Assembly: GCF_024521635.1 (NCBI RefSeq) | Contig: NW_026250423.1 | Coordinates: 62,001 to 126,000, forward strand | Origin: Tricharina praecox | Lineage: Eukaryota | Length of the DNA: 64,000 nucleotides | Direction: 5' to 3' | Shown: in pieces, positions 302 to 58,700 of the stretch | Layout of the letters: each line of letters opens with the position of its first letter | Numbering within the stretch: position 1 is the first letter of the stretch | The notes under the pieces: model-generated | Database searches by the model: none | Seen by the model: the letters and a program-made list of their open reading frames with translations, nothing else | What the model was told of the DNA's origin: nothing | Program-made: the position numbers and the translations under genes

Positions 302-1678
302 TGAAGAGATAACACATTCATTTAACATTTTCCTATGTACTCTACACCCCCGACACTCCTTACTATTTTTCTATGTCTATGATCGAGGTTCGAGATTCGA
401 AGAAGAAGAAGAAGAAGAAGATATAATCAATCAATCAATCAGTATGCTCCTGTGTGTTCTCGTGTGTTTGTGTGTGTGTGTGTGTTGGCATTATTATATA
501 CCCCCTTTTTTTTTGTGTTGCTTCCATTTGCTTCTGCGTGTGTGTGTGTGAAAGTGTCGTCTGTCCATGTATACCGATTCTTTCTGTTTATTTACTATGT
601 GGTGTGGGGTGGGGTGTGTGAGGTGTTGACACTCTTTAAAGAAAGAATGTTTTTCATTTGTTATAAACCACTTGCATGAATGATATCTCTGTTTGCTGTT
701 TGCTCTGTTTGTTTGTTTGTTCGGGAGGCGGGATTGCGATTGGGATGCGGGACTGGGAGGCACAGTGTGTATATATGCGGGAGTTTCGTGGTGGGTTTCT
801 TTTTCTTTTCTTTCTTTCTTTCTTTGCAGTGACTATAACTAGTAGGTTAGCGAAGGGTGTAGTGGGGTCAATGATGATGGTTTTGAAATACATGTGTTGG
901 CCCGTACCGTGCGTGAATGAATGTGTGAGGATGTGTGAGGATGTGTGATGCGTGATAGGTTCTTGGGTGCGATCACTGTACCAGACATTGCCAGTTCCTG
1001 GAGGCTGATATTGGTCTTGACTCGCGAGTGAGACGTCGTAGTGTGCGGTAATGATTGCGACCTGACGATCCCATCCACGACGATCTCCCCCACCAGCCGA
1101 CAGCCGACAGCTTGGAATTGGACGCTTCCTGCGCGATGGCTTCGGTGGCTTCGGTTAGCAGCACGTTACGGAGCGGGAGCTGTAGTGAGACTGTGGTGGA
1201 TCAGGCAAGTGGGTAAGTTGAGTGGGTGTCTGACTGACTGCTTGAGGACTTGGAGGAGGTTGGATGGGCAGCTCTGGCGGCGTGGATATCCAGCACTGGC
1301 TTTGGAGCTCCTGCTCCTGCCGCTGTTCCTCCGTGCCGAGAGCCCTCGGAACACCACATTAGGACACAGCGTTCGGGCCGAGTTGAGCCATCGCGAACTT
1401 GCACACGACATTCACTCAGCCCTCAGCCCTCAGCATTCAGCGACGATGATGATGATGAAGCCGTAGGAATCGTTCGTTCGTTCGTTACACGCACGGAAAC
1501 GGACACGGACGTAAGAAGAAAGTAAGTACAGTACAACTCCCAACCATCCATCGATTCGTTCATTCAATCATCAGACGGTCGCACGCTTCCACCCATTCCA
1601 CCCACATCCTCCCATCCACCCATCGAGTAGTTGAACAGTTGAACAGTATAGTTGGTCCGGGTGTCCCGCTCGCTCCGT

Positions 1679-2607
1679 CTATGCGCAGTACTTATCGAGG
1701 GCAGCCTGCGGTCGATATCATCAGCACCGCACGCCATCCTCACCCCCTCCAACCCACCCCACCTCCATCCTATCCCCGACTGAAAAGGAAGAACATACCT
1801 TCAAAGCACTAGGATTAGCGCCAACAACCTCGGAGACCTTCTTGCCGTCCTTGAAGAACAGGAAGGTAGGCATGGCGCGGACCTCGAGCTCAGCGGCGAT
1901 CTGCTGGTGCTCGTCGACGTCGAGCTTGTAGAAGCTGGCCTTCTCCGCGTAGTCGTTCGAGAACGCATCCACCTTGGGCGCGATCACCCTACACGGACCT
2001 GTTCATGGTGTGAGTGAGTGGAGTGTAAGGGGGTGGGGGTGGGGGTTGGGGATGACGAACCGCACCACACCGCGAAGAAGTCGATCACGACAAGCTTCGT
2101 CTTGGACTCCTCCAACGCCTGGGCGTAGGTATCGGCGCTGTGGCAGAGGCAGAGTTAGTGGTCGTATTCATGGTCATGGTCGTGGTCGTGATCGTGGTCA
2201 TGATAGTCATGCGTGGGAGAGATGGCGGGATGGACGGGATGGCGGGATGGGATGAGGTGGATATGGTTGGTTGGCGGGGTAAACTCTACGGGGTCCCACC
2301 ACCACCATCACCACATCTACGCCGCGAAGATGCGATAGGATGGATGGAATGGAAAGGAGAGAGGGACTTACGCTTCGATCTTGATGACGGTCATTTTTGC
2401 GGTTGAGGTGGTAAAGTTGCGGGGAGTGTTGAGGGTTTGGTGGAGGGTGTTGTTGGTGTAGCGGTAGTGAGGGGTAGTGGTGTTGGTGTTGGTGTTGGTG
2501 TAGGAGGAGGAGGAGGGGTTGCGGGTAAGTAGTAGTAGCGATGACGAGATGCTGTAGTTGCGCAGGTGCGATGACGATAGGAGAGAGCGAATCCGTGGGG
2601 CTGCCAT
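1679..2607 (-). CDS. TRX: Thioredoxin (WCGPC) with a putative N-terminal mitochondrial presequence; exons 2607-2372, 2137-2061, 1998-1799, 1705-1679; second in-frame ATG at 2394
   Basis: Spliced product [44 protein letters not shown]...[36 protein letters not shown]. The WCGPC active site is rebuilt across an intron, and all introns are GT-AG. Confidence 0.95.
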
Positions 2608-3330: not shown

Positions 3331-4744
3331 GGGCTCCGTATGTACTCTACAGTACATACCAAGACCTAGAGTAGAGTCGACTGCCGGCATCGCCGCACCG
3401 ATCAGATCAGATCTCGGGGACACGCGTGCGCCGGGAGTCCGGGATCCCTCAAGCATTTCTATGATATGTAGAGTACAGCGGATGTACGCCGGTCTCGAGT
3501 CATCACTCGCCCATGTTTCCGAAATAGGTACTGCCCAGGCCCGCAAGCAGCTGGCCTTCAGGTTCTACATATGTACCGGCTGAAGTTGAAGACGGAGCAC
3601 TGCCTCGTGGGCCAGTACTTCCAGACTCCAGTAGACAAAAGAGCCGCCCCGACGCCCCGACGCTGAGTGCGGGTAATGTCGCTACTTTACAAGACTCGGG
3701 CCCAGACTCGGGAGCACCCCTTCAAGTGCTGCGCCGAGTGGAAGAGCCAGCAGAAGATGTGGTATCGGTACTGTAGACAGAGGTTTGGGAGTAGACAGGG
3801 AGGGGCAAGCCACGGCGCGGCCGCCTGACGAAAGTCGGGACTCGGGTTAGACAGACGGTGGACGATATGGAAACGGAGTGTGTATATAGGGTAGTATTGC
3901 CATGATCTAGGTAGAGCATTTCTGTAGTTCTATAGCTGCCCTCAACAGATACAACAGATACAACAGATAAAGGGACTAACCCGCCCCGCTCCATCCATGG
4001 GTTATGGCAGTTGAAGCGAGTACTTAAGGCCAAAGCCGATTCACGCATCCTCACTCACCTCTAACTAGGTAAACCACTGAGCACTCAATCGCGGTGTGCG
4101 TATGGTACCGCCATATCGCTACATCACCACATCACCACATGCCACTCAATTCACGCGAGAGCCCACAGTGTACATATGTAAGATGCTACGAGTATTCTCC
4201 GCACCCACATCCGCCCCATCCGCTCATCCGCTCATCCACAACCCCCCACAACCCCCCACAATCCCCCGCCCATGCCACCAAGCACCATCTATGTAGCCAC
4301 AACCAAATCGAGAAAGCAAGCACTTGCCATGTCTCAGGGGAGGAGGAGGACAAGCCTCCTTTCCTTCCATTGAGTAGAAGAAAAAAGGAAACGGTAAGAA
4401 ATGAGGAAAGAAAAAAAAACTCCTGAAATGATATGCAGTGTGCGTAAGGAGATACAGGAAAGAAATGAAGAAACAAAACAAAGACGCCATCGAAAAAAAC
4501 CACACCCAAACCGGCCAGACCATCCATGAGGTTGAAGAAAGGAAACGAACGAAAGACAAGACAAGACAACTGCAAAGGGAGGAGAAAAGAAAATAGAAAT
4601 GTAAAGTATACCACCAGAGGATGCAAGTGGAAAGGTAAGTAAGGAAAAACGAGAGATTGCCAACAATTCGCCATACGCCCCGCCCATGTATCCATACCCT
4701 TATTTTCTTCGTTTCGTTTGTACAGGACAAAGAGGAGTGAGCAT

Positions 4745-10376: not shown

Positions 10377-11206
10377 AGCTGTGGGGTGGGGTGCAGCGGT
10401 GGCGAGGTGGGGGACGAGGTGCGCGCGGGAGCTGGTGAAGCTTGGTTGAGACGAAGAAGGCGGGCGGTGATCGTGGTAGCGGTGGTGGTTTGCGTGTTGC
10501 GCGGGTTGGTAGGTTGTGCGGGTTTGGCCGTGGAGCCACTGTTGGAACAAAGATGAGTTGCAGTTGACTAACACGCTAGGCTGCTGTAGGGTAGCTTCTC
10601 TCATGAACCATCACTCGTCGATATAGGGCTACCCATCGGTTTCCAAGAACCGCTTTGCATGGGCCGTTTGAGGACAACGACCGTTTCGACAAATTATTGC
10701 CCATAAATTCAACCCTTTCGGCAAAGGACGGCTTATGTACTCTATGCAGCACATCCAAACAAGCTTTAAGGTACCGAGTGGGGGTACCTTCTGGAGAAGA
10801 TGAGGGCTACGACGCGCCGCGACAGCGCATAACCGATAACTCGAGCTCTTCGGAGGCTCACTTTCAGATATTGCGAGGATAAGGGGATCTGGACTGTCAT
10901 TTCTGTTTCTAGAGTTTGGTGGCGGGATTTCTTTGTCAAATGCATTATTGTAGATAACTCTACCGGCCATAGCCTTAGGGTTCCATGCTGTATGAAATCA
11001 ATCAAACAATTAAACGAGCTTCAAGTACACAATCCAGTAAACAGAGTAGGTAATTTTATCTGCCTAGAAAATACGGAAAGTACACCAGCCAAAACACCGA
11101 AGGAAAAACGATACCGGTACGTATGCAGATCCATTCTCGTGCACTCAAACGAAACCAGGCCATGCAGAAACCAAAATACGCATCCAAGCCTTTTCCTGGA
11201 GAAAGA

Positions 11207-13113: not shown

Positions 13114-13310
13114 GACGATGTGGGGGCGCCTGTCTGCGGAGTGGGGATGGTGGGAATTGTCGTCGGTGAAATTAAGATGAATCTCTGTGTTTGTGAAATT
13201 TTCGGTGGAATGAATTGTTTGCTTTAGGCAAGGATCCAGTGAGGGGCAAGCCCGCGAAGGGACGCAACCCCACCACCAAGTGTTCCACCACCTCCCAGAC
13301 TAGCTATTAG

Positions 13311-13351
13311 CACCACCACCACCACCACCACCACCACCACCACCACCACCA
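13311..13351. repeat. (CAC)n trinucleotide microsatellite in the approximately 410 bp divergent arb1/IPK intergenic region
   Basis: About 13 perfect CAC units read directly. Confidence 0.95.
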
Positions 13352-23213: not shown

Positions 23214-23246
<33 letters not shown>

Positions 23247-25980: not shown

Positions 25981-26580
25981 TCATCCACCCATACATCGGT
26001 GTCACTCGCTTGCTGGTTTCCTACCTATTCACGCGTTTGTTTCTCTCATGTTCTGGTCATATGTACTATTTGCTCTCTCATTTCTGTACGATTGAGGAAC
26101 TGCTGTCTTGGTACCTGTAAAAGGGCTTGATCCTGCCATCCTAGCTGGACGACATCTTAGACACCTTGGGTATTCGGTTGAATGTTATCACGCATATCCA
26201 CCACCAAAACTTCAACAGTCGTTGATTGTCTCCTGTTTGTCCAATCTAATTCATCCTTCACGGATACCTATCACTCGTTTGCTGGTTTCCAGGAATTGTC
26301 ACGCGCTTGTTTCACTGTTTGTTCCACTGTTTGTCATGTGTCATGTGTTTGTTTCTTCTTATCATACGGCTGACTTGTGGATTGCTCATATATCTCATGT
26401 TCTGACGACTAGGTATCTGCTCGCTTTTCTGTACGATTGGGGATCTACTGTCTTCCAATGATACCTGTGAAAGGGTCTGGTCCTGTCCGTCCACCTACTA
26501 TAGCTAGACGGCATCTTAGACATCTTAGATATTCGGTTGAATATTGTCACGCATATCCACCACCAAAACGTCAACAGTCG
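25981..26580. repeat. Diverged direct duplication (about 25981-26221 vs about 26251-26580)
   Basis: Shared blocks include TCACTCG.TTGCTGGTTTCC, TTTCTGTACGATTG and CATCTTAGACA.CTT.G.TATTCGGTTGAAT.TT.TCACGCATATCCACCACCAAAAC.TCAACAGTCG. Confidence 0.9.
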
Positions 26581-26782
26581 TCCATAGATACAGCATACGG
26601 CTGTGACCGCTGGGGACTGATATCGGCGGGAACAGAGCGCGCGTACTATGCGCGGAGGATGAGGATGGGGATGAGGAGGAAGGTGCAGGTCGCTGTGGAT
26701 GCCCTACAGCGAGGTTAGAGATCGGAGATCGGTACCGCCGAGTGAGCTGTAGTTAGAGTATCCATATGACTTTTTGTTTCCG

Positions 26783-37974: not shown

Positions 37975-38031
37975 TCCCCCGCCTCATCCCACGCCTCATT
38001 CCACGCCTCATCCCACGCCTGATCCCACGCC
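37975..38031. repeat. 12-bp minisatellite (CCCACGCCTCAT)-like, about 5 copies
   Basis: Read directly; gives the IPRL repeat in the ORF track. Confidence 0.9.
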
Positions 38032-39247
38032 TTATCGTGGGAAAAAAGGAGTCGGGTTCTCGGGACGCGATGAGACATTTGCCAGGTCCAATCGGGCTCG
38101 ATGCGACGAGTCGTCGGGTCGGTCTGGTGCATCACAGCAGAGGACAGGGACCTTTTGCTTTGCGAGTGTGAGTACCGTCTCTCGTCCCCCGTCCCCCGTC
38201 CCTCCCCCCCCATGCAGAAGTCGTCTCGTCTCGTCTTGTCTCGTCTGCTCCTGTCGGGTTCGGATTCGTCACATATCGTCAAGGAGGGCTCGGACTTGTC
38301 TTGGAGCGGGTATGTACAGTACTCTACAGTACAGTACTGATACGATACTCTATGTTCCTTCCTTCCTTCCTGCCGTGTTCTCTCCCGTATGTACGTGCCA
38401 GGTTCCTCCTCGTCACTTCACGAGTGGCAAAAGCACACGCCTCCCCGTGCACTCATCTCGTCCTCCCCTCGCCCTCGCCCTCGTCCTCGTCCTCCCTAAC
38501 TGCCTCCTTCTCTTTCCGACAGAGTGCAACCCCCCTTCCATCGTGATCAATCCCTAGAACGACGGATGGACAGACGGGTAGCAGCTTCTCGCTCAAGCAA
38601 GCACGTTTGTCGTTGTTGTCGTCGTTGTCGTTTGTTGCTGTTGCTGTTGTACCGGCGACGATTCAAGATTGTGGCGCCATTTCGACAGGAACGGCTCGAC
38701 GGGGGGAGGGAGAGATGAGCGGCGGCGGCGCAAGGTTCTTGGTGTGTAGAGTATGTGCAATACATGGACCATTGGATTGGGTGTCACTTCTGGAATATCT
38801 ACTTGCTTGCTTGCTTATGTGCAGTACATGGAGTACATATAACCGAGAAGTGTGCACATCTTATTGTTGCGCCGTGACGAGGCGAGGGAGGGATGCTGTG
38901 TACGAGGATGTAGATATGTACATGAAGTACGGGTATCGCAATGTACTGCACCAGAGTACATACTGTATGTAGGCACATCGACTGTAGGTACATCACCTCG
39001 ACTCGCCCGACTCCGCAGGAGATCGATTACCATTCGCCACTGCCATTCGCCATTCGCCATCGACTTGCCCTCGTCCTCACCCTCACCCTCGTCCTCACCC
39101 TCGCCATCGGAATCGCAATCGCCATCGCAATCGCCATGACCGGCCGGAAAAGTGCAGAAGTATGTGCAGAAAGAAGGAAGGGATGGGGGATGGGGGATGG
39201 GGGATGGGGGATGGGTATGATCATGATAACGATAGATCAGCACAGGA

Positions 39248-39381
39248 AGCAGCAAGCAGCAAGCAAGCAGCAAGCAAGCAGCAAGCAAGCAGCAAGCAAG
39301 CAGCAAGCAAGCAGCAAGCAAGCAGCAAGCAAGCAGCAAGCAAGCAGCAAGCAAGCAGCAAGCAGCAGCAAGCAGCAAGCA
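39248..39381. repeat. 11-bp minisatellite (AGCAAGCAAGC)n, about 10 copies
   Basis: Read directly; gives the QQASSKQAASK repeats in the ORF track. Confidence 0.95.
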
Positions 39382-42300
39382 AGGTGGATCCCAATGGATC
39401 CCAACATAGAGTAGGTACGGTACGGGAATAGACATCCCCACCACCGTCCCCATCCCCAGCCTTCGTCCCCAATGCCCATCCTCGAGCGGTGGCGGAGGGC
39501 GCGGCACCCAGTGCACCCACGGGGGGGGCAGAAACGACCTCGGGTCACGCACTACCACTGCCACAACCACTACCGCTAGAGTAAATACCAGTAGAGTGGT
39601 CGAGGTTAACTACTCTGGTGAGTGCAAGAAGCGGGGGCCGTTTCTCGTTTCACACCCCCCACCACCCTCGTGCGCTTCTCGAGGATGTGCAGTGTGCGCA
39701 GCCTCGCGCTTAAAAGAGAAGCCGCAGACGAGAAACGAGAAACGAGAGGGAGTGGCGGGGGCTGGGGCTGGGGCTGGGCCGCTGCTGGGGTGGGGTGGGG
39801 TGGGGTTCGTGGGATAGATAGGTGGTTTCGTGGGTCACATATGCGCGGGCCGTGGGCGTGGGCTGCTGCTCACAATGTGCACCTGTGTGCTCAGTGAAGT
39901 GCTCAGTGCTCAGTGAACAGTAATAACTTGGCGGCGGCGTGCTCACTGCTGAGCGGGCTGGGCGGGTGTGCGAAGGCATAGGTACATGGCCAAGAGTAGC
40001 ATGTGCTGACGTCGTGGGGGGAGGTGATAACAGGAGAGCGGGAGCTCGAGAGGCGAAGAAGCACAGAAGAAGAAACAACACTCGCCGCCCGCGGCAGGCG
40101 TGATGATTGAATGATCTGCAACGCAACGGCTCGAAATCAATCTCCATACTCTATCATACCCTACATAGAGTCTAGGTATACGGGCCAGAAGAAGCAAAGA
40201 AAACCCACCCACTGCACCCACCACCCACGCACCCACCACCCACGCACCCACCGCCCACTCACACTCACACCCACCGCCCACTCACACTCACACCCACGCG
40301 CACCCGCGTAGTTCCGTCTGCGCCAACCAACTACTCCAACTACTCCAACTAGAGTAACAGCTCAGCGAGCCAGTGGCATGTACCGTAGTTGCTCATGTAA
40401 GTAAGTACGGTGGTATCCACCAGGCTACTCTACTACTGACTATATACGGTACGGTACTAGGGATGCTCGACTCGTGGTGTGAATGATGGGATGGGTGATG
40501 GGTCCAACAACACCCCACCCACAGCATGTGGCTCTGCTTCCCTGTCGGATGCATTCTTTATGCCACACTCATGCTTTTCTTTGAGCGCAGCGACTGGATG
40601 ATTGAATGAATGAATGAATGATCGACCGAACGAACGACCGAGCGACTGAACGAGCGACTGAACGACTGAACGACCGCTCATCTGGAGTACGGTAGTTACC
40701 TACACATGGGCGAACAGACGCTGCGCACACTCTCATACACTCTCACTGCGGCTGGAGCTGCGACTGGAGCTGCGACTGGATCAATCATCCAGAACCGGTG
40801 CCGCTCCTCCCATCCTCCATTTTCGTACTCCAGAGTCCATAGGTAGAGTACTCTAATTACTCCGCTCAGCCCCGACCCGCGAGCAATAACGCGAGCAATA
40901 CCTAATTACCCGCGGCTGCGGGAGGGACGGAGGGAGGGAGGGCTCAGGAGGGCTCATCACATAACGTCGCATCGCGCGGCCACGGCCGCCGCTCGGTGCC
41001 ATAGTAACTACACCCAGGCGCATTCGAGCGGGATTGCGCGAGTTGCGAGGTGCTGGCGGCTGGGCGGCGGGTGGGTCGAGGGCTTTGGGTTGAGAGCGTT
41101 TGGGGGTCTTCTACGGTGCCTAACAAATGCAATGATTGAACAAAAACAAAGCACAAAACAAGACAGAAAACAAAAAACAAAAAATCGACTCACTGACCAC
41201 TGGCGACTGACCACTGACCAGACGAACGATGACGACGACGACCAACTGACGACGACGACCGACCAACAACGGTACTTAGCTGCGGCTGAACCTTCAACCG
41301 CGTGCAGCAAAGAGAAGGGGAGGAAGAGAAGGGGAGGAAGAGAAGGGAAGAAAGGGTCTGCTGTTGTATGGTATGGTATGTACCGGTGGAAACAACTAAC
41401 CAAGAACTGACCAAGAACTAACCAAGAACTGGCCATAAAAGTGTAGGTGTATGGTAGTTACCGTATGATGGTATGACGGTATGATACTACTCTAGTATGG
41501 TATGATGTGTTATGGTACTTCCCGAGTCTGCACTGTGCAGACTTTTAGAAATACTACTATTATACTTGTGTCTGTATAATACATACCATGATGCAGATAC
41601 TTCTGTAACTACACTTCTTATGTAGACATGTAACTTCACTTCTCATGTATGTACCGGTACTTCCCAGTATAGGTATTATAGGTACGCGGGCGGCAGATGA
41701 ACGAGCTGGCGTCTGGAGGCTGGATAATGGACAGTCACCAGTGGATAGGTAGTGCTGAGTGGACAATCGACCGTGCTGAGTGGACAGTCACCAGTCGCCA
41801 GTTACCAGTCACCAGTAACTAGTCACTAGTGAACAGACTCACAGACCCCGGAGCAGGAAACGAAACCGAAACCTCCGCAATCCTGCCACGAAAACCGGTA
41901 CCGTCCACACCGTCCACACCGTCCACACCGTCTATACCGTCCAAACCTACAACGGATAATTCGAGGTTTTGCACAGTGGTATTCAAGCTGCGAGCAAGAG
42001 CAAAAAGCGCTCTCGTTACAACTTATAATAGAGTGAGGAGCAGGATCAAAAATAATACACGCAATTCATCAACATCATGAGGTCCATCAATACAAAACAA
42101 AGAGTACAGGAGTAAAACGAATGAAGAAAAGGAAAGAAGAAAAAAACAGACAGAAGAAAACGACAATGCAGCAGGGTAAATGAGCTGGTCTGGCGGGAGG
42201 GTCCCATGAGCGTAGGTAAGTACATTAGGTAGGCAGGCAGGTAGATGGGGCCAAAGTGTGAATGCATTCGACCGACCGACCGACCGACCCGACCGACCTA

Positions 42301-42855
42301 AAGGACCTCCATCCCGACCGACGACCTTCTCCGTTCTTTTCCAAACCATCCCACAAGAGTAGAGCAACCGCACGGAAAAGAAACACAACCTCAAAGCTAA
42401 ACGAACGTAGCATGGAACAAGTAATAAGCATCATGAATAATAAAACGAAAAAACGAAAAACTGAATAAAGAAATCCACGTGGAACGACAACGCCGGGATG
42501 CACGCCCATTGGATCCATCGAATTGGTTGGTAACCGTGGCTGGAGTCGCGACAGATCGACATGATAACATAACTGCCTCTGTCACAAACTCGGCCAACGG
42601 CTTCCTTCGATGAACCATCCGTGACTTTGAAGCCCCCCGCCTCCGTCCCATTCCACACACCCTCCTTCACCTTCCCATTCCCCTTCTCCTCCTCCCCGCA
42701 AGGTATATCCCCCGCTAAACCCCCCGAAAAAGAACGAAGCCTTACAAAATTATGCCAACGCAAAACACAATCATCATCGCACACGCAAACAAAAGGAAAC
42801 GCCACTCGCCAACCAATTCGGAATTCATGACTACTTCGACCGTCGCGGGGGTATA

Positions 42856-44099: not shown

Positions 44100-45109
44100 T
44101 TTTGGTGAAGCCTTTGATTGTTTGGTGGACGGAACCGAGACTCGAAGGATGGGATTCGTTGGCTATGCGAGCTACAAGTGGTGGGGGGTGGAGGGTTTAT
44201 GTATTGGATGGGCGGAGCGATTGAATGCTGGCAGTCGAGCGAGCAATTGGGGGGGGGGGGGGGTGTGGGAGAGTGAGTGTGGTCCAACGATAGTAGGCGA
44301 GGTGCTATGGGGTAGTAGTGGTAGTTTGTTGTTGTTGTTGTCGGGACAGAAAGTTTGGCGCGTACCAGGGAGCGGGTAGCTAGTAGGTGGTGGTAATGGA
44401 GGGATGAACCAGTGAACTTGTCTCCTTCACTTTTATTCACTCGTCGGGGTGTAATTGACGAGATGTTGCTGAGGTGTGCGGGGGGAACTCAGGTTGCGGG
44501 TGGGGAGAAGGAAGGGACAAGAAATAGAGGGCGGATCTGGGGTTTTGTTGTTATGGGCGAACCGTAGAGCAATCCATTGTGCTGGGATGGGGGGATGGGG
44601 GGGTGTGTGTTTTTTTTTGGGGTCGGGGGGGGGGTGTGGGTGGGTCGTGTGGGAGGGAGGATGGGGAAGGCGGGTGTGTATGGGATAGGTATGGTACGGG
44701 CTGGTCCGGGGGGGGGGGGGGGGAGTGAGTGGTGTGTGTGGGCCAGCCAGCAGCAACCAAGCAAAGCAGAGCAAGCAGAGCAAGCAAAGCAGAGCAAAGC
44801 AGAGCAGAGCAGGCAAAGCAAAGCGACGCACACCAAGAGAGAGAGAGAGTGCACACACACCACGCTATCACGTTTGGAATTTGGACTGGCCGATACGGTG
44901 GGCAGCCAAACTAACAGGCCCGGCCAGCATGGTACTCGCGACAAGGGGCATTCTACGCAGATGTGCGACGGTTACGGAGAGCGGGATGGCGGGACTCGAG
45001 GCAATGGGGAATTGGCTCCAGCAACACGCCTGCGACTTGCATTGGAGAAAGAAGGACGAGCCAGCCAACCCATTGCGGTGAGGACTGCAAGCGAGGCGGC
45101 CGGAGACGA

Positions 45110-45217
45110 GACGAGACGCGATGGAACATGGGCGGGAAGGGAATAGCTGCGGTGAGGACGAGGCGCGATGGAACATGGGCGGGAAGGGAATAGCTGTGGT
45201 GAGGACGAGGCGCGATG
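45110..45217. repeat. 47-bp tandem repeat, about 2.3 copies
   Basis: GACGAG.CGCGATGGAACATGGGCGGGAAGGGAATAGCTG.GGTGAG at 45110 and 45157, partial at 45204. Confidence 0.92.
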
Positions 45218-47042
45218 CTGCTAGTAGCTGTTCTTCTCGGCGACGAGACGCGATAGAACATCGGCTGGAATAGTGGGCAGAACTATAGCATGAAGCGGTT
45301 CTTCTCAGTGACGCTTCGCTACACGGCTCTATTCTCCTCCGCCTCTTGCGCGGTCTCATGATGATCACCGTGATTCGCATGGAACAATCACACTCTCTAC
45401 TTTACTAGTCGCGCGCTGCAAACGCAGTACCACCCAAAAGAAGGGGGGCGGGGCCGACGAAGAAACAAAAGTGCCTTCGAAGGCGTTCAGGGAACAACCA
45501 CGTTCGCGAGCCGCTCGTCGTCCTGCTCGTCGTCCTGCTCGTCGTCCTGCTCGTCGTCCTGCTCGTCGTCCTCCTTCTCATCGTCCTCCTGCTCGTCCTC
45601 CTGCTCGTCCTCCTTCTGTTCCCGCTGCTCGTCCTCCTCCTGCTCCTCCCTCTCCTCGTGCGGGTACGTACCCGTGGTACTTTAATTCACAGACCGTTCC
45701 CGCCCGAGTCCTCAATAAGCAAACAGGTGCCTACTCTAGCTAAGTAAGAGAGTCGTCGGCTCGTCGGCTGGCTCCCATCACGCTCGAGACATGCTGCTTG
45801 TGGGCTGGCTCTGATGATGCCACCCCTCCCCCGTGCTACTTACATGTGTTTCTCCTCCATCGGGCATGTACACTCCCGCTACGCCACGGTAGGGTATGTG
45901 CTCCTCTACCGTATGTAGAATCCGAGTCTCCAGATTCTCGACGCAGCTGTGGATCCTTCTGGGAAGTAGAGTAGAATAGACTACTCTACATACACATCCT
46001 CACGATCCCCACTGCTGCTGCTGCTCCACTGCTCGACTCCGCTCCGCTCCTTCGTCGTTCGAACGAAGCCAGCCAGCCAGCCACGAAGCCAGCCATTCGA
46101 GAATCGAGACCCACACACGCGGTGGCATGACCCCCCACAAGATTAATTACACGCCTGCTCGGTTCCTGGATCCGGGGCCCAAAGTGTTCGCTACGTACTA
46201 TGTCCGTGTGGCTCAGCAGGGCAGCCAAGCCGCCGGCACTCCCCGTGGCCAGTGGCAATCGACTTCCGCAGCCTCTACTTCCATCGTCCCGCAGAGTTGG
46301 TTGCATGTTGGATATCGTAGAAATCCAGATATCCACTTTTGTGACTTGTCCTACCGCGCTCGTGCTGCGAGGACGGCACTGCATACCCTAGAGTCTAGAG
46401 TATCTCAGTATCATCGTGGAATTACGGTGGAATCTTGCGTTCGTCGCCCTCCCCAGTCCCAGTCCCAGTCCCCTTTTCCGAGGAAACCAATGTGCAGAAC
46501 GGCCGCCACAGGCCCACAGAAACAAGAACGTGCTCGAAGCTCGAATTTAAACTCCCACCTACCTGGCATCTACCACACTGCGCAGCGATTGTGCAAAAAA
46601 AAAGATTCTCTCTCTCTCTTCCCTTGAATCGATTACACAAAGCTCCACAAAGCTCCACAAAGCTCCACAAACCATTGCACAACATCAAGGCCGCGAATAC
46701 TCTATTGCACTCGCAGAACCCGGCGGTTCAGCTCCACAGCCCATATATGCATAGCATCAGACATCCTCGGTGCAGATCGATATCGATATCCCGACGTCTT
46801 AGAGAAGATGATGATGATGCCGATGATGCCGATGATGCCGATGATGCTGATGAGAGATGGGATATGCACATGAACAGCCCTCGACGGTCGCAGCGTCAGC
46901 ACCGGCGACGGGGAAGGAAGTCGGTGCAAGTTGCACCTATTCCCACAGTCCCACTCAAAGCAGCACGTTGACGATCTCATGGAGTCGTGCTGGGACTGTT
47001 GGGCGTTTACGTTTATGCACTGGAACTCCATGCTGTGGCGCC

Positions 47043-47144
47043 GACTCCATGCTCTGGGATTCTATGCTCTAGGACTCCATGCTCTGGGATTCTATGCTCT
47101 AGGACTCCATGCTCTGGGATTCTATGCTCTAGGACTCCATGCTC
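47043..47144. repeat. 30-bp minisatellite, about 3.4 copies, itself a dimer of two related 15-mers
   Basis: GACTCCATGCTCTGGGATTCTATGCTCTAG at 47043, 47073 and 47103. Confidence 0.95.
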
Positions 47145-48565
47145 CTAGAACTCCATCTGCCGACCCCATGTGAGGAGGAGGAGCACTCCCGGAGGAGCAG
47201 TTCTTGCCCATCAACCAGCGGCCAGCCCAGTCTGAAACTGGAGACTCGGTAACACTCGAGGGCTCATCCTTCCCCCACTTTTACCCTTATACCCTTATAC
47301 GCTTAACTACATACACGCAGGTGAAGATGAAGACTGAATGCGGTCCCGATGAACCCACTCGGGGGGATGGGGGTGAGGGGTGAGGGGTGAGGGGTGAGGG
47401 GTGAGAGTATGGGGGGAGAACGACCATCAAGAAGTCGCACATATCCGCCCACCAACCGGATCATACTATACACGCGGAACTGGATGGGGATGGGGATGGG
47501 ACATCAACCATAGAACTCATCGAACTCTACCGGCGGTGCGGTGAGTACAGCTCGAAGGTTCGAGAGTGGTGTGAGGTTGCTCAAAAACTCCCAGGCTCCC
47601 CGTGCACACCTACAGTGTACACCTAGGTACACCCTCAACCACAGATACCGGTACGGCGGTACTGCGGTACATCCCTCGTGGTTTGGTTTGGTTTGGTTTG
47701 ACGATATGTACTCAAACAGACAGGATGATCCTGTATGTCCCCTCCCAGTCGAGCTTTCATTTTCCGGTGAGTTTCATCGTCCGCTCCTATTTGGCGTATA
47801 TAGGACCTAGGTGGGCGAGTAGGTAGGTACGCCGATTCTAGATAGTTTTCCCATCCAAAAATACATACCGACCCAACGACGAGCCACGGCTAACCAGTTA
47901 CCAACCTGCAGCCTCCCAATTGGTTCGAAGCCCTTGAGGCTTAGCCCCTACATATGTGCATACTCTACTTGCTCTACATACTTGCTTGGATGCCTGGGTG
48001 CTTCGTTAACGGTTATCCATGATCTATCGTCCGCAGGCAGTCAGAGCAGCAGTGAAGCATGGCATGGTCTGTCCCGATGGGCCTCGAACGGCTTGGATAG
48101 ATGCAAAATACAAAAACGCCATCCCGGACTTGGATGTGCTCGCCTTACCCCGAGTCGTTGACCAGCATGTGATGGACCGAACGGCTGCTAGAGAAGGGTG
48201 TTAGCGGATCCATATTTCGAGCGGGAACTACTGGAATTGTTGTTGTGGTGGTGGTGATGGGGTTCGGGGCTATCGGTTTCGGGGGCTGTGTATGGTAATA
48301 ATGGGACAGGTCATCGAATATGGAGGATAAGAGGATGAAGATGATGAAGATTATGTCTAGATGATGTCTATACGATTATGAAACAGTGCTACGACCGTAG
48401 GAATACCATATACGCAGGCCTGAAGGATCTACCTATGTACATACTTGAACCTCAGCTCGTTGTATGTACGATATGTACGATATGTACGATATGTATGATA
48501 CCCATCTCCACGTACCCGCACCCGCGAATGCTCTTTCTGTTCCTCACGTCTGACCGAGACCACCC

Positions 48566-48657
48566 ACCCATCCATCTATCCATCCATCCATCCATCCACC
48601 CATCCATCCATCCACCCATCCATCCATCCACCCATCCATCCATCCACCCATCCATCC
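48566..48657. repeat. (CCAT)n microsatellite
   Basis: Read directly. Confidence 0.92.
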
Positions 48658-51600
48658 AGACGATCTATGTATGATATGTACTCTACATATGTGCTCTACA
48701 GTACCTACCAGTACATACATGGCCAGCAGTACGCTAGACAGGCTCGGTTCACTGCCGAAGCACCGGCACTTGCCGTCCGGGCCCGATCCGACTCGCGAAA
48801 CCGTCAAGAAAACGGATTACGGTAATCTCCTCGCCGCCGGTGCCGCTGCCGATTCGTTGCCTGTCTGCCGGTACGTACAAGGTGTACGTGGAAGGCGAGA
48901 CACGGTTAATTGTCGGTCGGGCATCTACGATGGTTGTAGGCGAGCAGAGAAGAATAGAGAAGAGTATACCTACCATGTATCTACTGTATTGTCAAGGGGG
49001 TGTAAAAAACTGGTAGTTCTACCTATCTTCAAGAGAATGGCGGTGATACCTCCGAAACTCCGACATCGATATGCGTCCAGCAAGAACCAACGTTTTCATT
49101 ATATATCCCCCCTTGAACTATATAGCACAGGACGGTACTATAGTTACCGGTATGTACCGGTATGTACCGGCGGCTCGCTTCGCACTGCGCAGGCGTGGGC
49201 GGTCCCCCCACACTGGGAACGCCGAATGCGTTAGGACTCCAGTCATTCACTCGACTCGACGAGGGCGTGCGAAAAAGGGTTTGAAGGGTTTGCAGTACGC
49301 TGCAGTATGCACAAGTAGGTGTGTGCAACGCAGAGCGTAGAAGAATCTTCAGTCACCAGTCGGTACATACTTTGGGGGCGGACGATAGGTTCGTCCTCGT
49401 CCTCGTCCTCGTTGGCACCATCCACCCTCGCAGTAACGCAGAAGGTAACGCAGCATGGGTTCAGTTGAGCACATATGATATGGGGGTACATATGTGAATA
49501 TCGTGGGCACTTGTCTGGGCACTGACCTACCGTAATCCGTCTGGACTGTGGCCTGTGGACTCTCCACTCTATCTAGCATCCGTGTGGGAGTTCTCTCTGG
49601 AACGTGAAGGACTTCTCCCTTTCCCCCGTCTCTTTCCCCCTCGTCCCCCCGTCTCCGCCCGCCTCGTCCCCCTGGTTGGGAGTTCTAACTTCTCGGTAGG
49701 GTGGGGGAGCGAAGCAAGCTACTGGTATAGTCTGGTAGAGTATGATGCTAGTAGTGCAAGGAATGCCCTGGGTTCGGCACGCCAGCCGGCCGGGTGGATG
49801 GAGGGCATCGTGACATATGCTGCGTCGTTGCGAGTCTGGGAATCGTCAGGAATTGAGACTACTACTACTGGGCTAACTACTGGTTACTGGGCTTCTAGAT
49901 GGTGCTATGGTGCTATGTATGGTATACTGCCACCTCGCCCGTCACTGTCACGGTAGAGTAGCGGTGGCGGCGACGATTCATGAAGAGTATTTACCGCTCT
50001 CTTGCAAGCAGCGCAAACCAAAGTAAAGCCAAGCAGAGCAGAGCGAAGCAAATCGGTGCAAAGTACATCGAATCAAAGCACATCGAAGCAAATCGAAGAA
50101 ATCGAAGAAATCGAAGCAAAGCAAACCGATGCAAAGCGGCAATTGTGCGCCAAAGCAGGTCGATGTCGATATAATCGCTCCACCGATGTAACGACATACC
50201 AAACTATGGTCCCGATAGGTTCCAGCAACACGGTCCGACTAGTTTTTACAGAGTAACCAAAGTGAGCAGAGTAAATACAGTAACCATAGCAAGCAGAGCG
50301 AGACTCGAGTACTCGCAACCCATATGGCAGTAGCTGTCGCCGGTCGGTCGGCAATTGCTGCGCTTTTATCGCCGAAATGAGAGCTCAGCCGCGGCATGTG
50401 ACGGATCAGGCGCACAGTCTGTATCTACTCCACCGCACAGTCTGGTGCGGTGCGGGTACTCTCCGTCTCAGTCGCTCATTCGTCGCGAGACGAGCCGGCA
50501 GCGGCAGCAGAGAAAGAGAGAGGATCGTGCCTCGACTTCTCCCCGGCGACGCCTGGCCTCCTGCTTACATGTACATGTACGTGTACCGGTAACCATCGTG
50601 TCGAGAAAGGTTCGGAGGAGAGGGACGAGGAGGAAAGCAAATCGAGACGGCGGGTTGCCAACTGTTGAGTGTTGACTGCGGTAGAGTTCACGGTCGCGTC
50701 GCATCGCATCGCATGCACAACGTGTCTTGCGTGCGTACCATACACACTCTAGGCAAGTCCTTGGTTGCTCTGCTTTACTTCACATCTACCGCGCACGGCC
50801 ATCCTTTTCGAAAAGTCTGTGCGCAAACGACCCTCCTCCTGTGCTCTCCAGTAGAGTACTACAGGATACCCCAGCGGGTTATTCCATAAACCAAAACAAA
50901 AGCAACAAAAGCAACGACGCTTAGCCGAAAGAAAAAAGAAAACCCCGAAAAAGAAAACGAAAACCCCCAAAACAAAGAAAAATCGTAGGACCACCAACCC
51001 GCCGCTGCCGCCAGCGAATTCCCGACCGCCCCACCGTACGTACGAATCTCCTGGCCCGGCAACAGCCGGGCAGCACGCCATAGTATGCCCCGTTTCATCC
51101 GCGTTTGTCGACGGAGCACCCGGGAACTCCAGTCTGGGACTGCCGCCGCTGAGCGCTTGACATGACACGCGGTGACGCGGGTGATGGCTGGTACATACGG
51201 TACTCGCATATTACATGGTCATGCCATTCTGCTTGTTTACCTCCCCTATGTAATAATAATTATTAGACTATGCTGGCCTTTAGCCAGTTGCTTACGGTAC
51301 ATACTGGCGAGTCGCGTCCGTCCGCCCGGCTTGTGGGCCGCCGCCGGCGCTGTGGTCCTTTGCTTGCTTGCCTGCCTGCCTGCCTGCCTCAGATTCTTAT
51401 CCGGACGTGGACACGGACACGGCTATGTGTCCTTGGGTAATCTGTACCGTGGTAGGTACCTGCCCAGGTCCCAGTGGCGGGTGCGGGCAAATACCCATGG
51501 ATAGGACTCCTACTCGAGACTCTGGAGAGGGAGAGGGAGAGGTACATAGAGGGAGAGAGGTGGGCAGTGGGCACTGGAAGGGGGGGGTGATCCTGTCGGA

Positions 51601-52575
51601 TCGTTCAGCACCCGCAACCCCAGGTTTCTTTTTTTTTCTTTTTCCGGCTTCTTTTCCCTGGGGATTTCATGTGGTCCATGCACTCCTTTGTCGCATACCT
51701 AGAGCAGGTACATAGAGTATGTACCTGCCTGCCTGGCCATGTACCTACCTCTAGAGTATGTAGAGTAACTATATTCCTCGCCGCTTTCAAGGCTCAAGGC
51801 TCAAGGCTCATATGATAGATCCCGGTCGCGGCCGGTGCTCACTGCAGGAGGACAGCACCGGCTTGCGAGTCGCAGACTCGCAACCATGGTCTCGGAATTC
51901 CATAGTTGGGCGCATTAAGTACCCTACCTAACCACCAGACATGCCCCCCTGAAACGCAGTCGAGATACGACGCTGACCGCTGACCGCTGACCGAGGGGGC
52001 CAGCGAGGATTGCCATTGGCGGTTGATCGCCGGTATGTATGGATGTGTGTATGGATGTACTCTACTCTACTCCAGAGGTGCCGGATTCCCACAGAGCCGG
52101 TTTGTTCGCTCTGCAATTCGATGGGTGTAGCATACCTACATGCCTGAGTACCTAGGCCTACATAGGTGTCGAGGCGATGGGTCCGACGCCCTGCGATCGG
52201 TCGGCCCGACACCGACACCGACACCGAAATCCGCACCGATGGACATTCCACACCGTCCTGTACCTTCCTTCCTTCCTTCCTTCCTTCCTTTCTCCGGATA
52301 CTCTACCCTACTACCTACTCTATTACCCTATGCTATATACCCCGCCCGCCCGCGGACATCTCCGCAAAACTTGCAGTCGCAGCCGCGATCCATGTACTCT
52401 GCTAGGTATCATAGGAAAATGGAAGCGGTTATGTACGTAACATAGGTACATACCGTACATCACACGCAGAATATCAAACGACCACTTAACTACAGGTTGC
52501 TCACGTATCCATGTCGTGCCATGTCGTGTCTCGTCCACCGTCGACGTCTGTCCAACTCGAGCCACCACGACACAT

Positions 52576-52703
52576 ACACAGACACCGACACAGACACAGA
52601 CACAGACACAGACACAGACACAGACACAGACACAGACACAGACAGACACATACACAGACACAGACAGACACAGAAACAGACACAGACACAGAAACAGACA
52701 CAG
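52576..52703. repeat. (CACAGA)n hexamer microsatellite
   Basis: Read directly. Confidence 0.95.
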
Positions 52704-55700
52704 AACTTACTTTTCCATCATCCCATCCCATGCCGGTCGCCGTCGGGTGGGTGGGTGGGGTTGCGGGTATACCTTGTTTGTCGGTATGTACACCTGTACG
52801 ACGGCCTATCCTATGGCGAACTCGACTCTCGACTCTCGAGTCTTCCTTGCAGCAGCAGCAGCATCAATTCGTTGTCGTTGTCGTTGTGCGACTCGTGCTG
52901 ACTGCCAAACGGCTTCGATCCTAACTACCGGTAACTATCGCCAAACGGAAAACAGCGCAGCGGGGTCGGAGGACAACCCAGTCTGGCTCGGGTCATCCGC
53001 TCACACGCACCCCGCCGCGTACTCTCGACTTGTCGACTCTCGCCTAGGTACTCTGCTCTACTCAGGTATCCCGGAAAGCAGCCAGAGCTGCTCGCAGTCG
53101 CAGTCGCAGTTACGGATGCTCTCGGGAAGTCGGGAAGTCGGGGATTCAGGCATCGGAAATAGTAGATTGCGAATACCGTATGGACGGAGCGAAGTCGTAA
53201 TGGTCGTTCGAGTTCCACTGCGACGCGCGATCGCATCCCTTTCGTCTCGTGTAACCTCCCAAGATCACGGGTGGAGAGGGAGAGGGAGAGCTTCACATGG
53301 TAGGTGCTGGTTTTCTTCCTCGTTTCCTGCACCAGCTCCTCCAGCAGTCGATCGCACGATGACGGAGTCCCTGCTGCTGCTCTCGGAATTGCCACCCTCG
53401 CCGTGGCCAACCAGCAGGTACTATTATACCTATCCTATAGGTACCACGTCCCCATATCCAACAAACCTCTCGCTCCCTTACCCACGTGCGTCAGCCTCGG
53501 CCGGTGGGATCCCGTCCGAATACATACATACATAGAGCTCCCATGTATGTAACATAGGTAGTAACTAGCGACGCAATTCCCACAACCTGGGTTCGCGATG
53601 TCTCAGATGTGAGTGTTTCCCAATGAACAGTCCCCACCGTCCCCACCGTCCGCACATCCACAGCATCCACAGCATCATCAGCAGCATCACAGGGCCCGCC
53701 GCCATCTCGGAGTCAAGACACGTAGGAGGAGATGTGTGGGCTGATCGCAGGGCGGGAGGTCTCGGCCTCTCGGGCTCGACTCGCCGTTTCGTAATAAACT
53801 GGCCGGCCAACCGGCGATATCGCCCCGTTTGGACGGTGTGGCCGCTGGCGACGATACGATTACTACTATTATCGAGTGCTTTTGGTTAGGTACTGCGTAT
53901 AAAAGTAATAGTTGTGTAGAGGTATCGGTGTCCATCGAGACGACTGGGGATGGGTAGTTAGTAGTCATCCGCAGGGCGACTTGTGCTCAATTGGCTGGTT
54001 CACCTTCGGAACTCGGCAAGCTCAAGCTACTTACCTAAGTACTAGGTACGTGCCTACATCGAGAGACTTCGAACACCGACGAGGCTCGAGAGGCTGCGAT
54101 CACATCTGAAAGAGGCCGGTGTTGGCATGTTAACTGCTGTCAATCCACTCGCGGCTCGCCGTTCGCCGTTGCTCAGCGACAGCGGATCATGAAGCTTAAA
54201 CAATTCGGCGTGGTGGACTAACCCCGACGTCCCGATGCGCCGCGGCAGGCCGTTCCTGACATTCATGGAGAATCAATTCCGAGGTTGCGGTTGCTTTACG
54301 GTGGTAGGTATATCTCGCTGCTACGGTACCTTGCAAAACCCTGCCATGTACACACATATGAGGCGTGCGCACCATGACCATCGACGGGGTGAGGCTACCA
54401 TCGTTACCATCATTACCGAGGGAAGAATGTACATATGATAAGTACATACGGCAGATGAAATCACTCCACAGAGCATTCCTTCGGCACTTTGGTGGGTAGG
54501 CCGCTGATGGGACGATGGTGGTGACTTGGAAGCCTTCACCACTTCTAAGTTCTGACCGTGCGGTGTGGTGCGGTGCTGGCGAAACCCCGGCGCCGACAGG
54601 TTAGTTGGTTAGTTGTTCCATCTAGGTCCATCTACATGGTTAACTTGTACAGTATTGTACAGTACGATCCCGACTAACTCATTAACCCCGTCCACATCAG
54701 CACCGCCAGGCCGGCACCCCCAGCACCAGCACCAGCAGTCTCTTGGCTCGTGACTGAGGTATTGTGAGAGTCTAGAGGTCGCCGTCCCGTCCGTCATCAC
54801 CACGAGTTTTCCCAGGGATGACCGCTCCGGAGCAAAGACCGCCAACGGAAGTTGCACCCGACAAGCTCGAGATCAAATCCCACGTTACTCTACGATCCGT
54901 ATAGTAGAGACGGTGATAACTACCTAGCGGGATACCCCGATAGCAAGCCCGTTCATCGGGACATTGTGGACAATGTGGACATTGACACGAGTGGACTTGC
55001 GTGTGGTAGTAGCCTTTCGAGATGAGGCTCCGTCGATCGTGCCCCCCTTCGCCCTGCCAATCTCCTCGTCCGAAATACGGTATGTACTTGTACGAGCTCG
55101 GCTGCTAGTTAGTCCCGGAACCACACTCGGGCCGTTCGCAACTAGCCGTCGGAGAGTGCCCAGCGGACGGACGGACGGGCCGCACCCGAGATCGAACCGT
55201 TCCATCGAGCCGCACCGACCGACGTGCAACCACGGCGGGTGGGTTTTCCCTTGACCTTCCGACAACACAGCCATATTCGAACGGCAGTCGCAGGGAGTGT
55301 GGCGCGGAGTACGGGTACTCCAACTGCACGGGTATACCGGATAATGAGTACTCCAATCACACGGGCACACCAAACAACGTAAACGCTCCGTCCACCGATG
55401 TTGTGGTGCATTGACAGGTCGTAGGTGGGCTGGAGCAGCAGCAGACATCTGTTTCATTCCCAACATGGACTCGATGGGACGATCCGCCACCGGGCAGGTC
55501 AACCGATAGGCAGGTAACCACGCCAACGACCGAAAGCCAGTGGAGACCGGCCATCAGCGGGTAGTGGTGGTAGTGCTGGTGTTTCGATGGATAGTCCTTC
55601 AAGTTACCCTATTCGATCTGAGCATTAGAGCTGTCCATACATAGCGGACCCATCACCACCATGCCATCATGCCATCCCCCATCCAGGAAGGGAACGTTAC

Positions 55701-58700
55701 CGCGTCTGGAGCAACATGCCTCGTGGCCCTCCCAAGTTACCCAGCGCATATTTCTCCCCTTCTCTTTGCGGCCTAAACAAGTGACGGGAAGCCAACTTGC
55801 AGCTCCCGTAGTTACTGCACATCGGGAATATATCCGGTACGGTACTAGCTGGGCGGGACGGAGCGCAGCGCGGCGCGGCGGGGGTACGGCGGCAACTTCG
55901 AAACCGGATGCAACTGGCTGCGCGCATAAAATCGTGCGTCTGCTGCGCTCATCCTCCCTTCGCATCCTACTCTATTCTTCTGGGCGGTCGACTCGCTGTA
56001 TCGCTTCCAGTTTTTCTTCTTCTTTTCTTTCTGCAGGGCGATAATAATTTGTACCTATGGCACATACAAAGAAGATATCTGCCAGACAGCCGCAGCGTAA
56101 GCCATAGTACAATACACACGGGGGAATCCGAATACATCGGTAGGTACATACATACCATGTGCGAAGCCATGCATAACATGCATTCCCGCACACTTGTCAC
56201 TTTGCGGTGCGTGAACGTCGGCCGCTTGTCTGCCTGCCTGCCTGCCTAATCGGAGTGCCTGTGTAAGTATTCACGTTCACTCATGCGGTTCGTACGCACG
56301 CACGTACGTACGTACGGGGGGTGAAGGGGGAGAAAGAGAAAAAAACATCCTTAGCCTTAACTAGCCGAGAGGAACGGGCAGGAATACATGTGTAGATTGT
56401 ATGTATGAGGTATGTACCGACATATCTTCAATCTGGGTATAGTAGAGCACTCTGCCAGACAGTGACAGTGACAGCGGGTTGGATTCGATTCGAAGCGCGG
56501 GATATCGCGCAACAGTGTTGTTTGCCCACTCTGCGTGGCGATAGTGGCGATAATGCCGCCGTCCAGTCCCGCGCCGGTCGACCGAATCGCGGGCAAGGCG
56601 TGCAAACTCGGAGGAGAAAACTGCTGCGTAACGCCCGTGAGTGCCAGTGCCCGTGAAGTTGCGGTGTCCATAGCGGCTGTGGAGATTCCGACGCCGGTTA
56701 CTGAGTGTGGGTGTGAGTGTGAGTGTTTCACGGCAGAGCTGCCATCATCTATGCGGTAGTTAGACGTGGAGATTTCCGGTGCGAAATGGCAGGTGTCCCC
56801 AGGTGTCCCCAGTACCGTTCCCGACTGATGCCTCATGCCTCGTGCCTCATGTCTGATGAAACGGCCGGAAAGTCGGCGCGGTAATTCCGGCGCTTAGGAT
56901 GTATTGGGAGCCGGGGGCGGGAGTGAGCGGCCATGATTCGCGTATGCGACTCGACCCCAAACCAGATCCTGTGCGCACGTAGTTAGAGTAATCACGTCGG
57001 TCTGGATCGCTCTGTCCGGATCAGTCGCTCCGGCATCCCCCGGGCGCGGTAGAGTACATGACCGAGAGTTGATTGATGCGCCGCGCGAGTGATCAGTTGT
57101 GATCCGCCCTGCCCGCACCTCCTATCGTCGCCCGAATTCACACACAGCGCTGGTTAGCTCGGCCGAGCCTTCCGTGTGTTGCGGGCACTCAATACTAAAC
57201 CGGACTTGTAGCGGTATGGTCCGGTGCGGTGCGAGTGATTCCCCGCGCTGCAACTGGGAGCCGAATGTACATACCAACGAACGCTGCGTGCCTCGGAATG
57301 AACGGCTTCGCAAACAAGCCCGCTCATGTCGTTTCTAGTCTACCTATCTTCTGCCTCACGTCTCTCCCGTCAGTGGCTCGCCAATAGGTAGTACGCCGTG
57401 TCTTCGGATGACGCTGCTGTTGTCCTCGATCTCATCCGCACTCAGGGCGTGCATGTACGGAGCTGGATGGACTTATGTACTCTACTAGCATATCCCCAAC
57501 GCCTATTCCACTCCATACAGTGCTGGCGGTCCCCGCGCCTCACTGAATAACTCCGCAGCTGTGTTTCGTACTGGATCTTGGCCGCAGCCTGCGTACCAGC
57601 GTTACTGTTACATTCCCGCTCTTGTCTCGCCTCGGGGATATAGAGTAGAGGATAGAGGGTAGAGAGCAACTTCGGCACGGGGTTCTCCCCGTAGTTGTGG
57701 CGGAACGAAAATCAGAACATTGCGGAATGCAGGAGCTGGACGGATTTTGCTGCTGTTGAACGCGCCGAAGCAACTACATACAGAAATGGGGAACAGAAAA
57801 AACAAGCCGCCATCAGTCAGGACTCAGCCCCGTCCATCCTCCGCACACCGCTGCCAGCTCCTCGTCCCCCGGCTCCACACTTTCACCTCGCGGGTGATGT
57901 ATCATGACGCCAAGCCACACAGACGAGGAGCCAGCCCAGCCCATGAGCCGTCCTCTATGGACGATGGGGATGCCAGCGCTGCAATAACGGCGTCAATGGA
58001 GTGGGAGGAGTGGTGGAGGACGAGACTGTGTGGGACATCGAGGAGGCTCTGGACCGGTCAGAGCAGGCGGTTCAGTGACGGAAGGTTCAGTGACGGGAGG
58101 GTGAGGCGACGGCGGAGTTTCCTCGATCCGATCACTATCAGGAGCTCTCTTGGGGCTGGTGCCCTTGGATCCTACGTAGAGCGCGGGAAACCAGCCAGTC
58201 TTCTGGACTGTGGATAGGTATCAGGACACCGCTTCCCACAATGGACTGCACAGTGCACGCGGATTATGAGCGGTGAAGCAAGCAGGCAAGCAAACAGGCG
58301 GGGCGAAACGCTCGCTTTTTGATGATTAGCCAGTAACTACTGCCTGGTGGTCTGGAGGAGATGTTTACTCCGTCATGGTAGCCTTCCGGAATGTTCTGTC
58401 ATGCATTCCGCGGCAAGATCCGATCAATGGTCCGGACAGCGCAAGCGGTATCACCGCTCGGTGAGATTCAATGGCCCCGCGAGATTACTACTAGGCCTTC
58501 CCTCACCATCTGCCATTGAATCTCGCCAGCCTCAGATATTGAAGCTTCACCCCCACACCTACAAAACCCCTACTCCCACCCACCAACTTCTCTTCTTCTC
58601 TTCATCACACGTATCGGACATTCACACAACTCTCTGCGAGAACTAAAACGCAACATTTGAATATCCGAAGTAAGTAAATCCGCCTTATCACACAAATCAC

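Follow-up and report, generated by a model that had tools for sequence, protein, structure and literature searches.

The non-coding DNA of a 64,000-nucleotide stretch of the filamentous soil ascomycete Tricharina praecox (contig NW_026250423.1, positions 62,001 to 126,000; hereafter the window, in whose own numbering positions are given) repeats one 9-letter word, GTAGAGTAC / GTACTCTAC, far beyond chance, and the question raised is what put it there. An earlier note on the window offered two options, a binding site for an abundant DNA-binding or chromatin-organising factor, or the footprint of a sequence-specific mutational or modification process. The patterns detected are consistent with a mutational footprint. 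That a TA-duplicating insertion process of some kind underlies the words appears very likely, and it is probable that they are accumulated excision footprints of Tc1/mariner transposons, a process that would reinforce itself since scars make new targets.

Results

The window holds 25 exact copies of the 9-mer (13 on the plus strand and 12 on the minus), starting at 337, 3342, 3468, 19544, 20247, 20781, 21037, 21068, 21365, 21423, 21944, 22606, 32963, 33299, 33538, 34848, 35403, 35734, 38319, 40843, 48678, 50851, 52057, 57049 and 57477, against a mean of 0.28 and a maximum of 2 in dinucleotide shuffles of the window. All 24 starts given in the earlier note are exact, and it had missed one further copy, at 32963. 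The absence from coding DNA that it described also stands, with 0 of 25 copies inside about 10.5 kb of coding sequence annotated by hand and none in a paralogue array at 58-64 kb; the core 7-mer TAGAGTA has one of its 74 window copies in coding sequence, at an approximate exon edge. Enrichment in the 33.7 kb of intergenic DNA did not disappear under a 4th-order Markov model, as the earlier note had allowed that it might (22 copies seen, 2.9 expected), and a 5th-order model, trained on the motif itself, expects 12.3. The genome (38.4 Mb, 104 contigs) contains 3,699 copies (1,891 + 1,808) compared with 318 (164 + 154) of a reversed control word. Density is 96 per Mb in the genome and 391 per Mb in the window, the latter about four times richer because it includes two stretches of 13-14 kb, at 29500..42800 and 44200..58200 (unstranded), that are apparently gene-free and carry many TA-N2-3-TA words.

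The unit is not a 9-mer, as had been supposed; the word parses as G-TA-GAG-TA-C, and its core TA-GAG-TA is one member of a TA-N2-4-TA family. Word spectra were taken from 264 kb, consisting of the window and twenty chosen 10-kb stretches, several of which were picked for motif clusters or transposases, and the 9-mer is 2.6 times as dense in this sample as in the genome. TA is the only one of the 16 dinucleotides with a sharp self-spacing excess at 4 and 5 letters (3.25 and 2.17). Relative to local shuffles, the enriched spacers between paired TAs are CA/TG (435 versus 82), CC/GG (330 versus 85), CTC/GAG (229 versus 23), AC/GT (151 versus 60), CCG (89 versus 21), CAG (58 versus 25), CTA (56 versus 20), TCA (55 versus 19) and CCA (44 versus 22), and among four-letter spacers CCGG (20 versus 2) and CATG (10 versus 2.3). 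Three-letter spacers with C in first or G in last position number 652 versus 275, and all others 274 versus 294. Both the parse of the word and the spacer spectrum thus have the form of a footprint, a duplicated TA around two to four letters. A prediction that both overhangs would frequently be retained was borne out by CCGG and CATG but failed for CTCGAG (1 versus 0.2) and ACGT (0 versus 2.7).

Words are joined through common TAs into chains, and the window has 162 chains of at least three TAs compared with 54 in shuffles. The longest, with nine TAs, lies at 38311..38352 (spacers TG, CAG, CTC, CAG, CAG, CTGA, CGA, CTC). Further chains, all unstranded like the longest, are at 3339..3358 (TG, CTC, CAG, CA), 21038..21063 (CTC, CTC, CA, TGCA, CA), 21362..21381 (TG, GAG, CTC, TG), 31725..31745 (CTC, GAG, CTC, TG, bringing both inverted doublets together), 40840..40859 (GG, GAG, CTC, AT) and 51742..51771 (CC, CCTC, GAG, TG, GAG, AC). 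The palindrome TAGAGTACTCTA was correctly placed by the earlier note at 21366, 31730 and 40844, within three of these. Genome-wide, this inverted doublet occurs 223 times (control 1), the opposite one, TACTCTAGAGTA, 122 times (control 0), and direct doublets, TAGAGTAGAGTA, 592 + 589 = 1,181 times (control 87). In the 264-kb sample TAGAGTA adjoins another TA word in 158 of 229 cases, compared with 71 of 165 for unenriched spacers, and has G...C flanks in 66 of 229 (29%, background 11%). Flanks of unchained copies were mildly asymmetric (G before in 42 of 71, C after in 25 of 71), and strictly isolated copies, at 25, were near chance level.

Dispersed repeats served as a test bed for insertion, with 70 aligned copies comprising 32 of 40 listed for family A (window copy at 10772..11025, plus strand), 33 of 40 listed for family B (window copy at 29743..30030, plus strand) and 5 of the Tc1-like element described below. 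For family B 220 candidate copies exist, 33 of them used, and the set leans older because the omitted copies were near-identical or short. These families, with at least 40 and up to 220 copies and with (ATCA)n and (TC)n tails, resemble by eye fragments of short or long interspersed nuclear elements, and family B is deeply covered in soil sequencing runs. There were 37 private insertions of 3-15 letters: 13 TA-duplicating and non-tandem, 5 TA-duplicating and possibly tandem, 8 tandem and 11 other, several of the last being one change short of a TA duplication. The first class numbers strictly 12 if a TATATA stutter is discounted. A TA duplication therefore accompanies 13 of 24 non-tandem insertions, compared with 0.7% of random insertions (p about 3e-22), and words of this family arise from a single ancestral TA by insertion. 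Spacers gained were CC/GG (6), CA/TG (5) and single others including TCA, TCAA, CAA and CT. At one family B site one copy had gained GG and two had gained CC, CA-TA-GT becoming CA-TA-CC-TA-GT or CA-TA-GG-TA-GT three times in all, and this, together with both inverted doublets, indicates free orientation. Two copies of the transposase had insertions at one and the same GTAC site, of TCA and TCAA respectively, and in family A a three-unit chain had grown at one TA. At the insertion rate observed, with 11 events in 62.7 TA-site x substitution units, about 3% of TAs would be expected to lie in a scar; the TA excess in the 264-kb sample is about 12%, or 4-5% by a rough estimate after 2.6-fold scaling, so that the predicted and estimated shares roughly agree in order. 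The paralogues at 58-64 kb and at 26 kb of the window yielded a few ambiguous cases, which were left uncounted.

Transposase domain searches returned at least four matches each to DDE_1, DDE_3 (PF13358) and HTH_Tnp_Tc5, and in their neighbourhood are TA-flanked inverted-repeat elements with ends CTG, CAG, CTA and CTC. A Tc1-like DDE_3 element at locus L013 has its ends in common with an 87-bp miniature inverted-repeat transposable element (MITE; 20 copies, plus copies in four more stretches) and with a 200-bp MITE (L148-L167) that has unlike ends, CTC and CCA, lies in GTAC in nearly all copies and has evidently spread. The end sequence TACTCGGGTG has 141 genome matches (control 58), and 19 of 33 unassigned matches, taken in list order, are element ends; a window match at about 33876 is not. 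After two false calls were removed from 81, 79 ends were scored, reading CTC (48), CCA (16), CAC (9), CAT (2) or other (4), with G before the TA at 77. The inner letters of the 9-mer are accordingly the terminus of a resident element, 48 ends reading TA followed by CTC in G-TA-C targets. Ends abut a TA word in 43 of 79 cases, compared with 28% of genomic GTAC sites; for TATG the figures are 24 of 79 and 7%, and for TAGAG 7 of 79 and 3.9%. At L029 two MITEs have a single TA in common. Across the elements examined, a partial search, spacers matched to ends were CTC, CA, CC/CCA, CTA and CAG/CTG.

Terminal inverted repeats, TA duplication, the PF13358 domain and short non-autonomous copies are all features of Tc1-like transposons with MITEs. 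The second D and the E are 33 residues apart at L013 and L015, and 34 at L014 only through a short repeat expansion, whereas Tc1 is described as DD34E (PMC7913693, in the part of that paper relied on here), and it is because of this catalytic spacing that the element is filed as Tc1-like. Tc1-like ends are CAG, in contrast to CTC, CCA and CAC here and to the unlike ends of the 200-bp MITE, and the ZB element prefers AT repeats according to the same source, in contrast to the near-absolute GTAC target. Element sequence alone does not distinguish duplication of TA within GTAC from duplication of all four letters around a shorter element; we prefer the former because of the DDE_3 domain, the form of the 9-mer and the two flanks other than G. 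Other elements seen were a 3,050-bp pogo-like one (L009 4313-7366), which lies in GTAC, ends in CTG and has inverted repeats nested inside it, and small inverted-repeat elements at L012 542-690, L014 6052-6155, L014 6513-7074 and L016 4629-4954, with ends CTG, CAG, GAGAG or TAGAG, and CTA, three of them flanked by TA words.

Between the two gene-free stretches lies a gene at 42850-44098 (minus strand) for a Cys/His-rich protein with two internal repeats and no Pfam match, whose named homologues are Pezizomycotina proteins at 38-51% identity; these homologues and the presence of spliced genes mark the DNA as that of a filamentous ascomycete. No genes are evident in the 13 kb on one side of this gene and the 14 kb on the other, several upstream non-coding blocks of it, among them those at 44471-44610, 44928-45015 and 45660-45893 are kept in the stretches L049 and L051, and the gene looks heavily regulated. 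The array at 58200-64000, continuing into L018 1-1100, consists of four to five spliced paralogues in tandem, which with their promoters are 73-84% alike, one copy ending in a CC-VM-like acidic tail. Ordinary genes at 1794-24440 include those named by eye as thioredoxin-like, OTU-like, D-amino-acid-oxidase-like, TFIIA-gamma-like and Ras, and by Pfam as Arb1, inositol polyphosphate kinase and zinc-binding dehydrogenase. In the 3′ region of Ras, 26030-26580 and 26765-27050 contain local duplications that are 150-190 bp long and about 78% identical.

Discussion

The mechanism we favour begins with a Tc1-like element with CTC ends, which would insert at the TA of GTAC and duplicate the TA, the target and the ends being those observed above. 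By the established biochemistry of Tc1/mariner elements, staggered cuts three letters inside the ends would excise it, and end-joining that kept one overhang would leave G-TA-CTC-TA-C or G-TA-GAG-TA-C. The 25 words at 337..57485, taken without strand, would then be scars of CTC-ended elements at GTAC. Elements with other ends may leave TACATA, TACCTA, TACTATA and TACAGTA, for which the insertions are observed and the link to excision is presumed. Each scar would add a TA in a favoured context and for that reason be hit again, growing into the mixed chains whose clustering is seen, after which slippage would lengthen direct runs, (TAGAG)n. The scheme predicts TAGAGTACTCTA as the product of a second hit at a TA that keeps the GTAC context, and the greater number of TAGAGTACTCTA than TACTCTAGAGTA fits the GTAC preference. 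Scars would be purged by selection from coding DNA, where they may shift the frame, and would gather in long intergenic stretches. The CTC words would derive from the CTC family found, through tens of jumps or losses per surviving element.

Several findings weigh against this scheme. The main gap is that no clean CTC/GAG spacer was gained in any TA-duplicating insertion, against an expectation of about 3 in 18, and the sole TAGAG doubling (L122) is ambiguous with slippage. About 100-200 CTC-family elements are estimated against about 3,400 excess 9-mers, so that tens of scars are needed per surviving element, and all three Tc1-like transposase frames read were damaged, no intact one being seen. 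The GTAC preference of the elements is near-absolute, yet only the 66 of 229 TAGAGTA words counted above have the G...C flanks, and TA-CAC-TA is not enriched (15 versus 24) even though 9 of 79 ends read CAC. The partial element search found no element for spacers AC, TCA, GA and CCG; pogo-like loci (L010, L011, L066, L067) gave no clear TA-flanked ends and so supplied none for AC, TCA or CCG. A transition from filled site to scar was seen at no locus, in a strain-read comparison that covered no element, and no scar was among the 12 of 27 strain indels listed, an underpowered comparison at about 1.5% divergence.

An alternative explanation could be breakage and repair independent of transposons, in which a domesticated transposase or a host enzyme, nuclease or topoisomerase-like, makes cuts at TA staggered by two letters, an end-joining polymerase adds biased untemplated letters, and elements merely share the hot spots. 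This would account for the insertions without tens of jumps per element, for AC, TCA and GA spacers that match none of the elements examined, and for the lack of an intact transposase among those read, but not for spacers that are few and specific, the top three-letter one being an abundant MITE end and the element target being the flanks of the word. Stretch L049, from a relative with 88% protein identity at the orthologous gene, has TACATA 80 versus 6.8, TAGATA 35 versus 2.5 and TACTCTA 8 versus 0.8, while L052 and L054, from relatives at 78% identity, have at most a weak excess (TACTCTA 3 versus 2; TACATA 24 versus 15 and 18 versus 12). A spectrum that varies among related species would be expected of transposon content and usually not of host repair, and we consider this alternative unlikely. 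In L049 5939-6110 a mixed chain of 19 TAs leads into a (TACA)n microsatellite, a scar chain on its way to becoming a simple repeat. Indels between relatives' contigs (15 for L049/L050, 12 for L052/L053, 2 for L053/L054) were mostly homopolymer or tandem, and L050 has one 4-letter gain at a TA that is possibly a scar.

Retention by selection as a binding site for an abundant transcription or chromatin factor, the other option of the earlier note, is still less probable. The words are non-coding, strand-symmetric and dense around one gene with very long flanks, and there are precedents in the limited portions of two papers on which we draw: TACATGTA is bound by the MYB protein PsMyb37 in Phytophthora sojae (PMC11134190), and TACGGAGTA is among the chromatin immunoprecipitation sequencing motifs of UvCGBP1 in Ustilaginoidea (PMC8344781). 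Against this, spacers are many, orientation is free, length is variable, new words arise in dead repeats and spectra differ between related species, so a binding factor is not needed. The words are absent from, or at most in weak excess in, the orthologous region of more distant relatives (L052, L054); most non-coding DNA of the window does not align with L049-L054, and the non-coding blocks that do align contain no TAGAGTA. Reads of four runs were compared over 29800-39200, where X1 hardly differed, X2 had diverged by about 1.5% in part of the region, and X3 and X4 gave short pieces only; strain substitutions make or break TA words at 30964 and 38757 (2 of 40 shown, of 84). DNA modification, which the earlier note had paired with mutation, leaves the insertions unexplained.

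Replication slippage or microsatellite turnover acting alone, from short tandem duplications, would suit a window rich in simple repeats (119 rows), the 13 of 37 insertions that are perfect tandem copies and the excess of direct over inverted doublets. Slippage yields direct repeats only, and inverted doublets are therefore not made by it; mixed chains and the 13 non-tandem TA-duplicating insertions are likewise beyond its reach, and those insertions contradict it as sole cause, an explanation to which we give slightly less credence even than to a binding site. Slippage is instead a secondary amplifier, lengthening direct runs afterwards, since the 1,181 direct doublets exceed the 345 predicted by free orientation. 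Repeat-induced point mutation (RIP), which in filamentous ascomycetes converts CA into TA, or methylation-driven C-to-T change could make TCA/TGA spacers from decayed CCA or CGA, but it is contradicted as a source of TA-rich words because it makes substitutions where the events are insertions, because motif-rich DNA is 50-57% G+C and because between strains changes of A>G or T>C (29) are more frequent than those of C>T or G>A (18), and we regard it as extremely improbable.

The excision footprint itself is textbook material. Sleeping Beauty leaves TACAGTA/TACTGTA and Tc3 leaves TACATA/TATGTA, both made by end-joining (10.1101/659086; PMC2874221), and known footprints have in common the form of TA, terminal letters and TA (also PMC7913693), in so far as the parts of these papers relied on here describe them. 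The words analyzed here are likewise TA, two or three terminal letters and TA in either orientation, with TACATA and TACAGTA enriched too. Known footprints are single events at donor sites, whereas here the words are the commonest non-microsatellite ones of the non-coding genome, and unlike known footprints they show several types of end and link into chains that reach nine TAs in the window and nineteen in L049. The mechanism would thus be a familiar one operating on an unusual scale. A further likeness is with Phytophthora motif-1 or AM-20 (TACATGTA), which is also a very abundant non-coding TA-N4-TA word, TA-CATG-TA being enriched here as noted. Seidl et al. saw its likeness to a Tc1 footprint but, given how abundant and conserved the word is, dismissed such an origin (PMC3520976, as far as the portion relied on goes), and a protein that binds it was reported later (PMC11134190); in contrast to the Phytophthora case, insertions are seen directly here. 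A description of genome-wide footprint accumulation, to the point of dominating the non-coding vocabulary of a genome, or of these words, was not found in the literature searched, mostly open-access papers without supplements, so that an earlier report may have escaped notice.

Similar TA-bounded words may be over-represented in other fungal genomes as well. It is possible, though we put this forward tentatively and think it rather less likely than not, that excision scars are a major, self-amplifying class of mutation, with a few per cent of TAs scarred here, that scars seed insertions and microsatellites, and that the lineage-specific TA-N-TA words of many filamentous fungi and oomycetes, such as TACATGTA in Phytophthora and TACGGAGTA in Ustilaginoidea, record families of transposons that have since vanished, some of the words having afterwards been taken over as binding sites for proteins. 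Scars piled up by the thousand between genes could be mistaken for regulatory motifs, and if the footprint explanation is true it would offer a neutral account of a class of motif that motif finders report as binding sites. It would also allow past transposition to be counted where the elements themselves have vanished, and would permit a direct test of the TACATGTA question in Phytophthora, by way of TA-duplicating insertions in old repeat copies.

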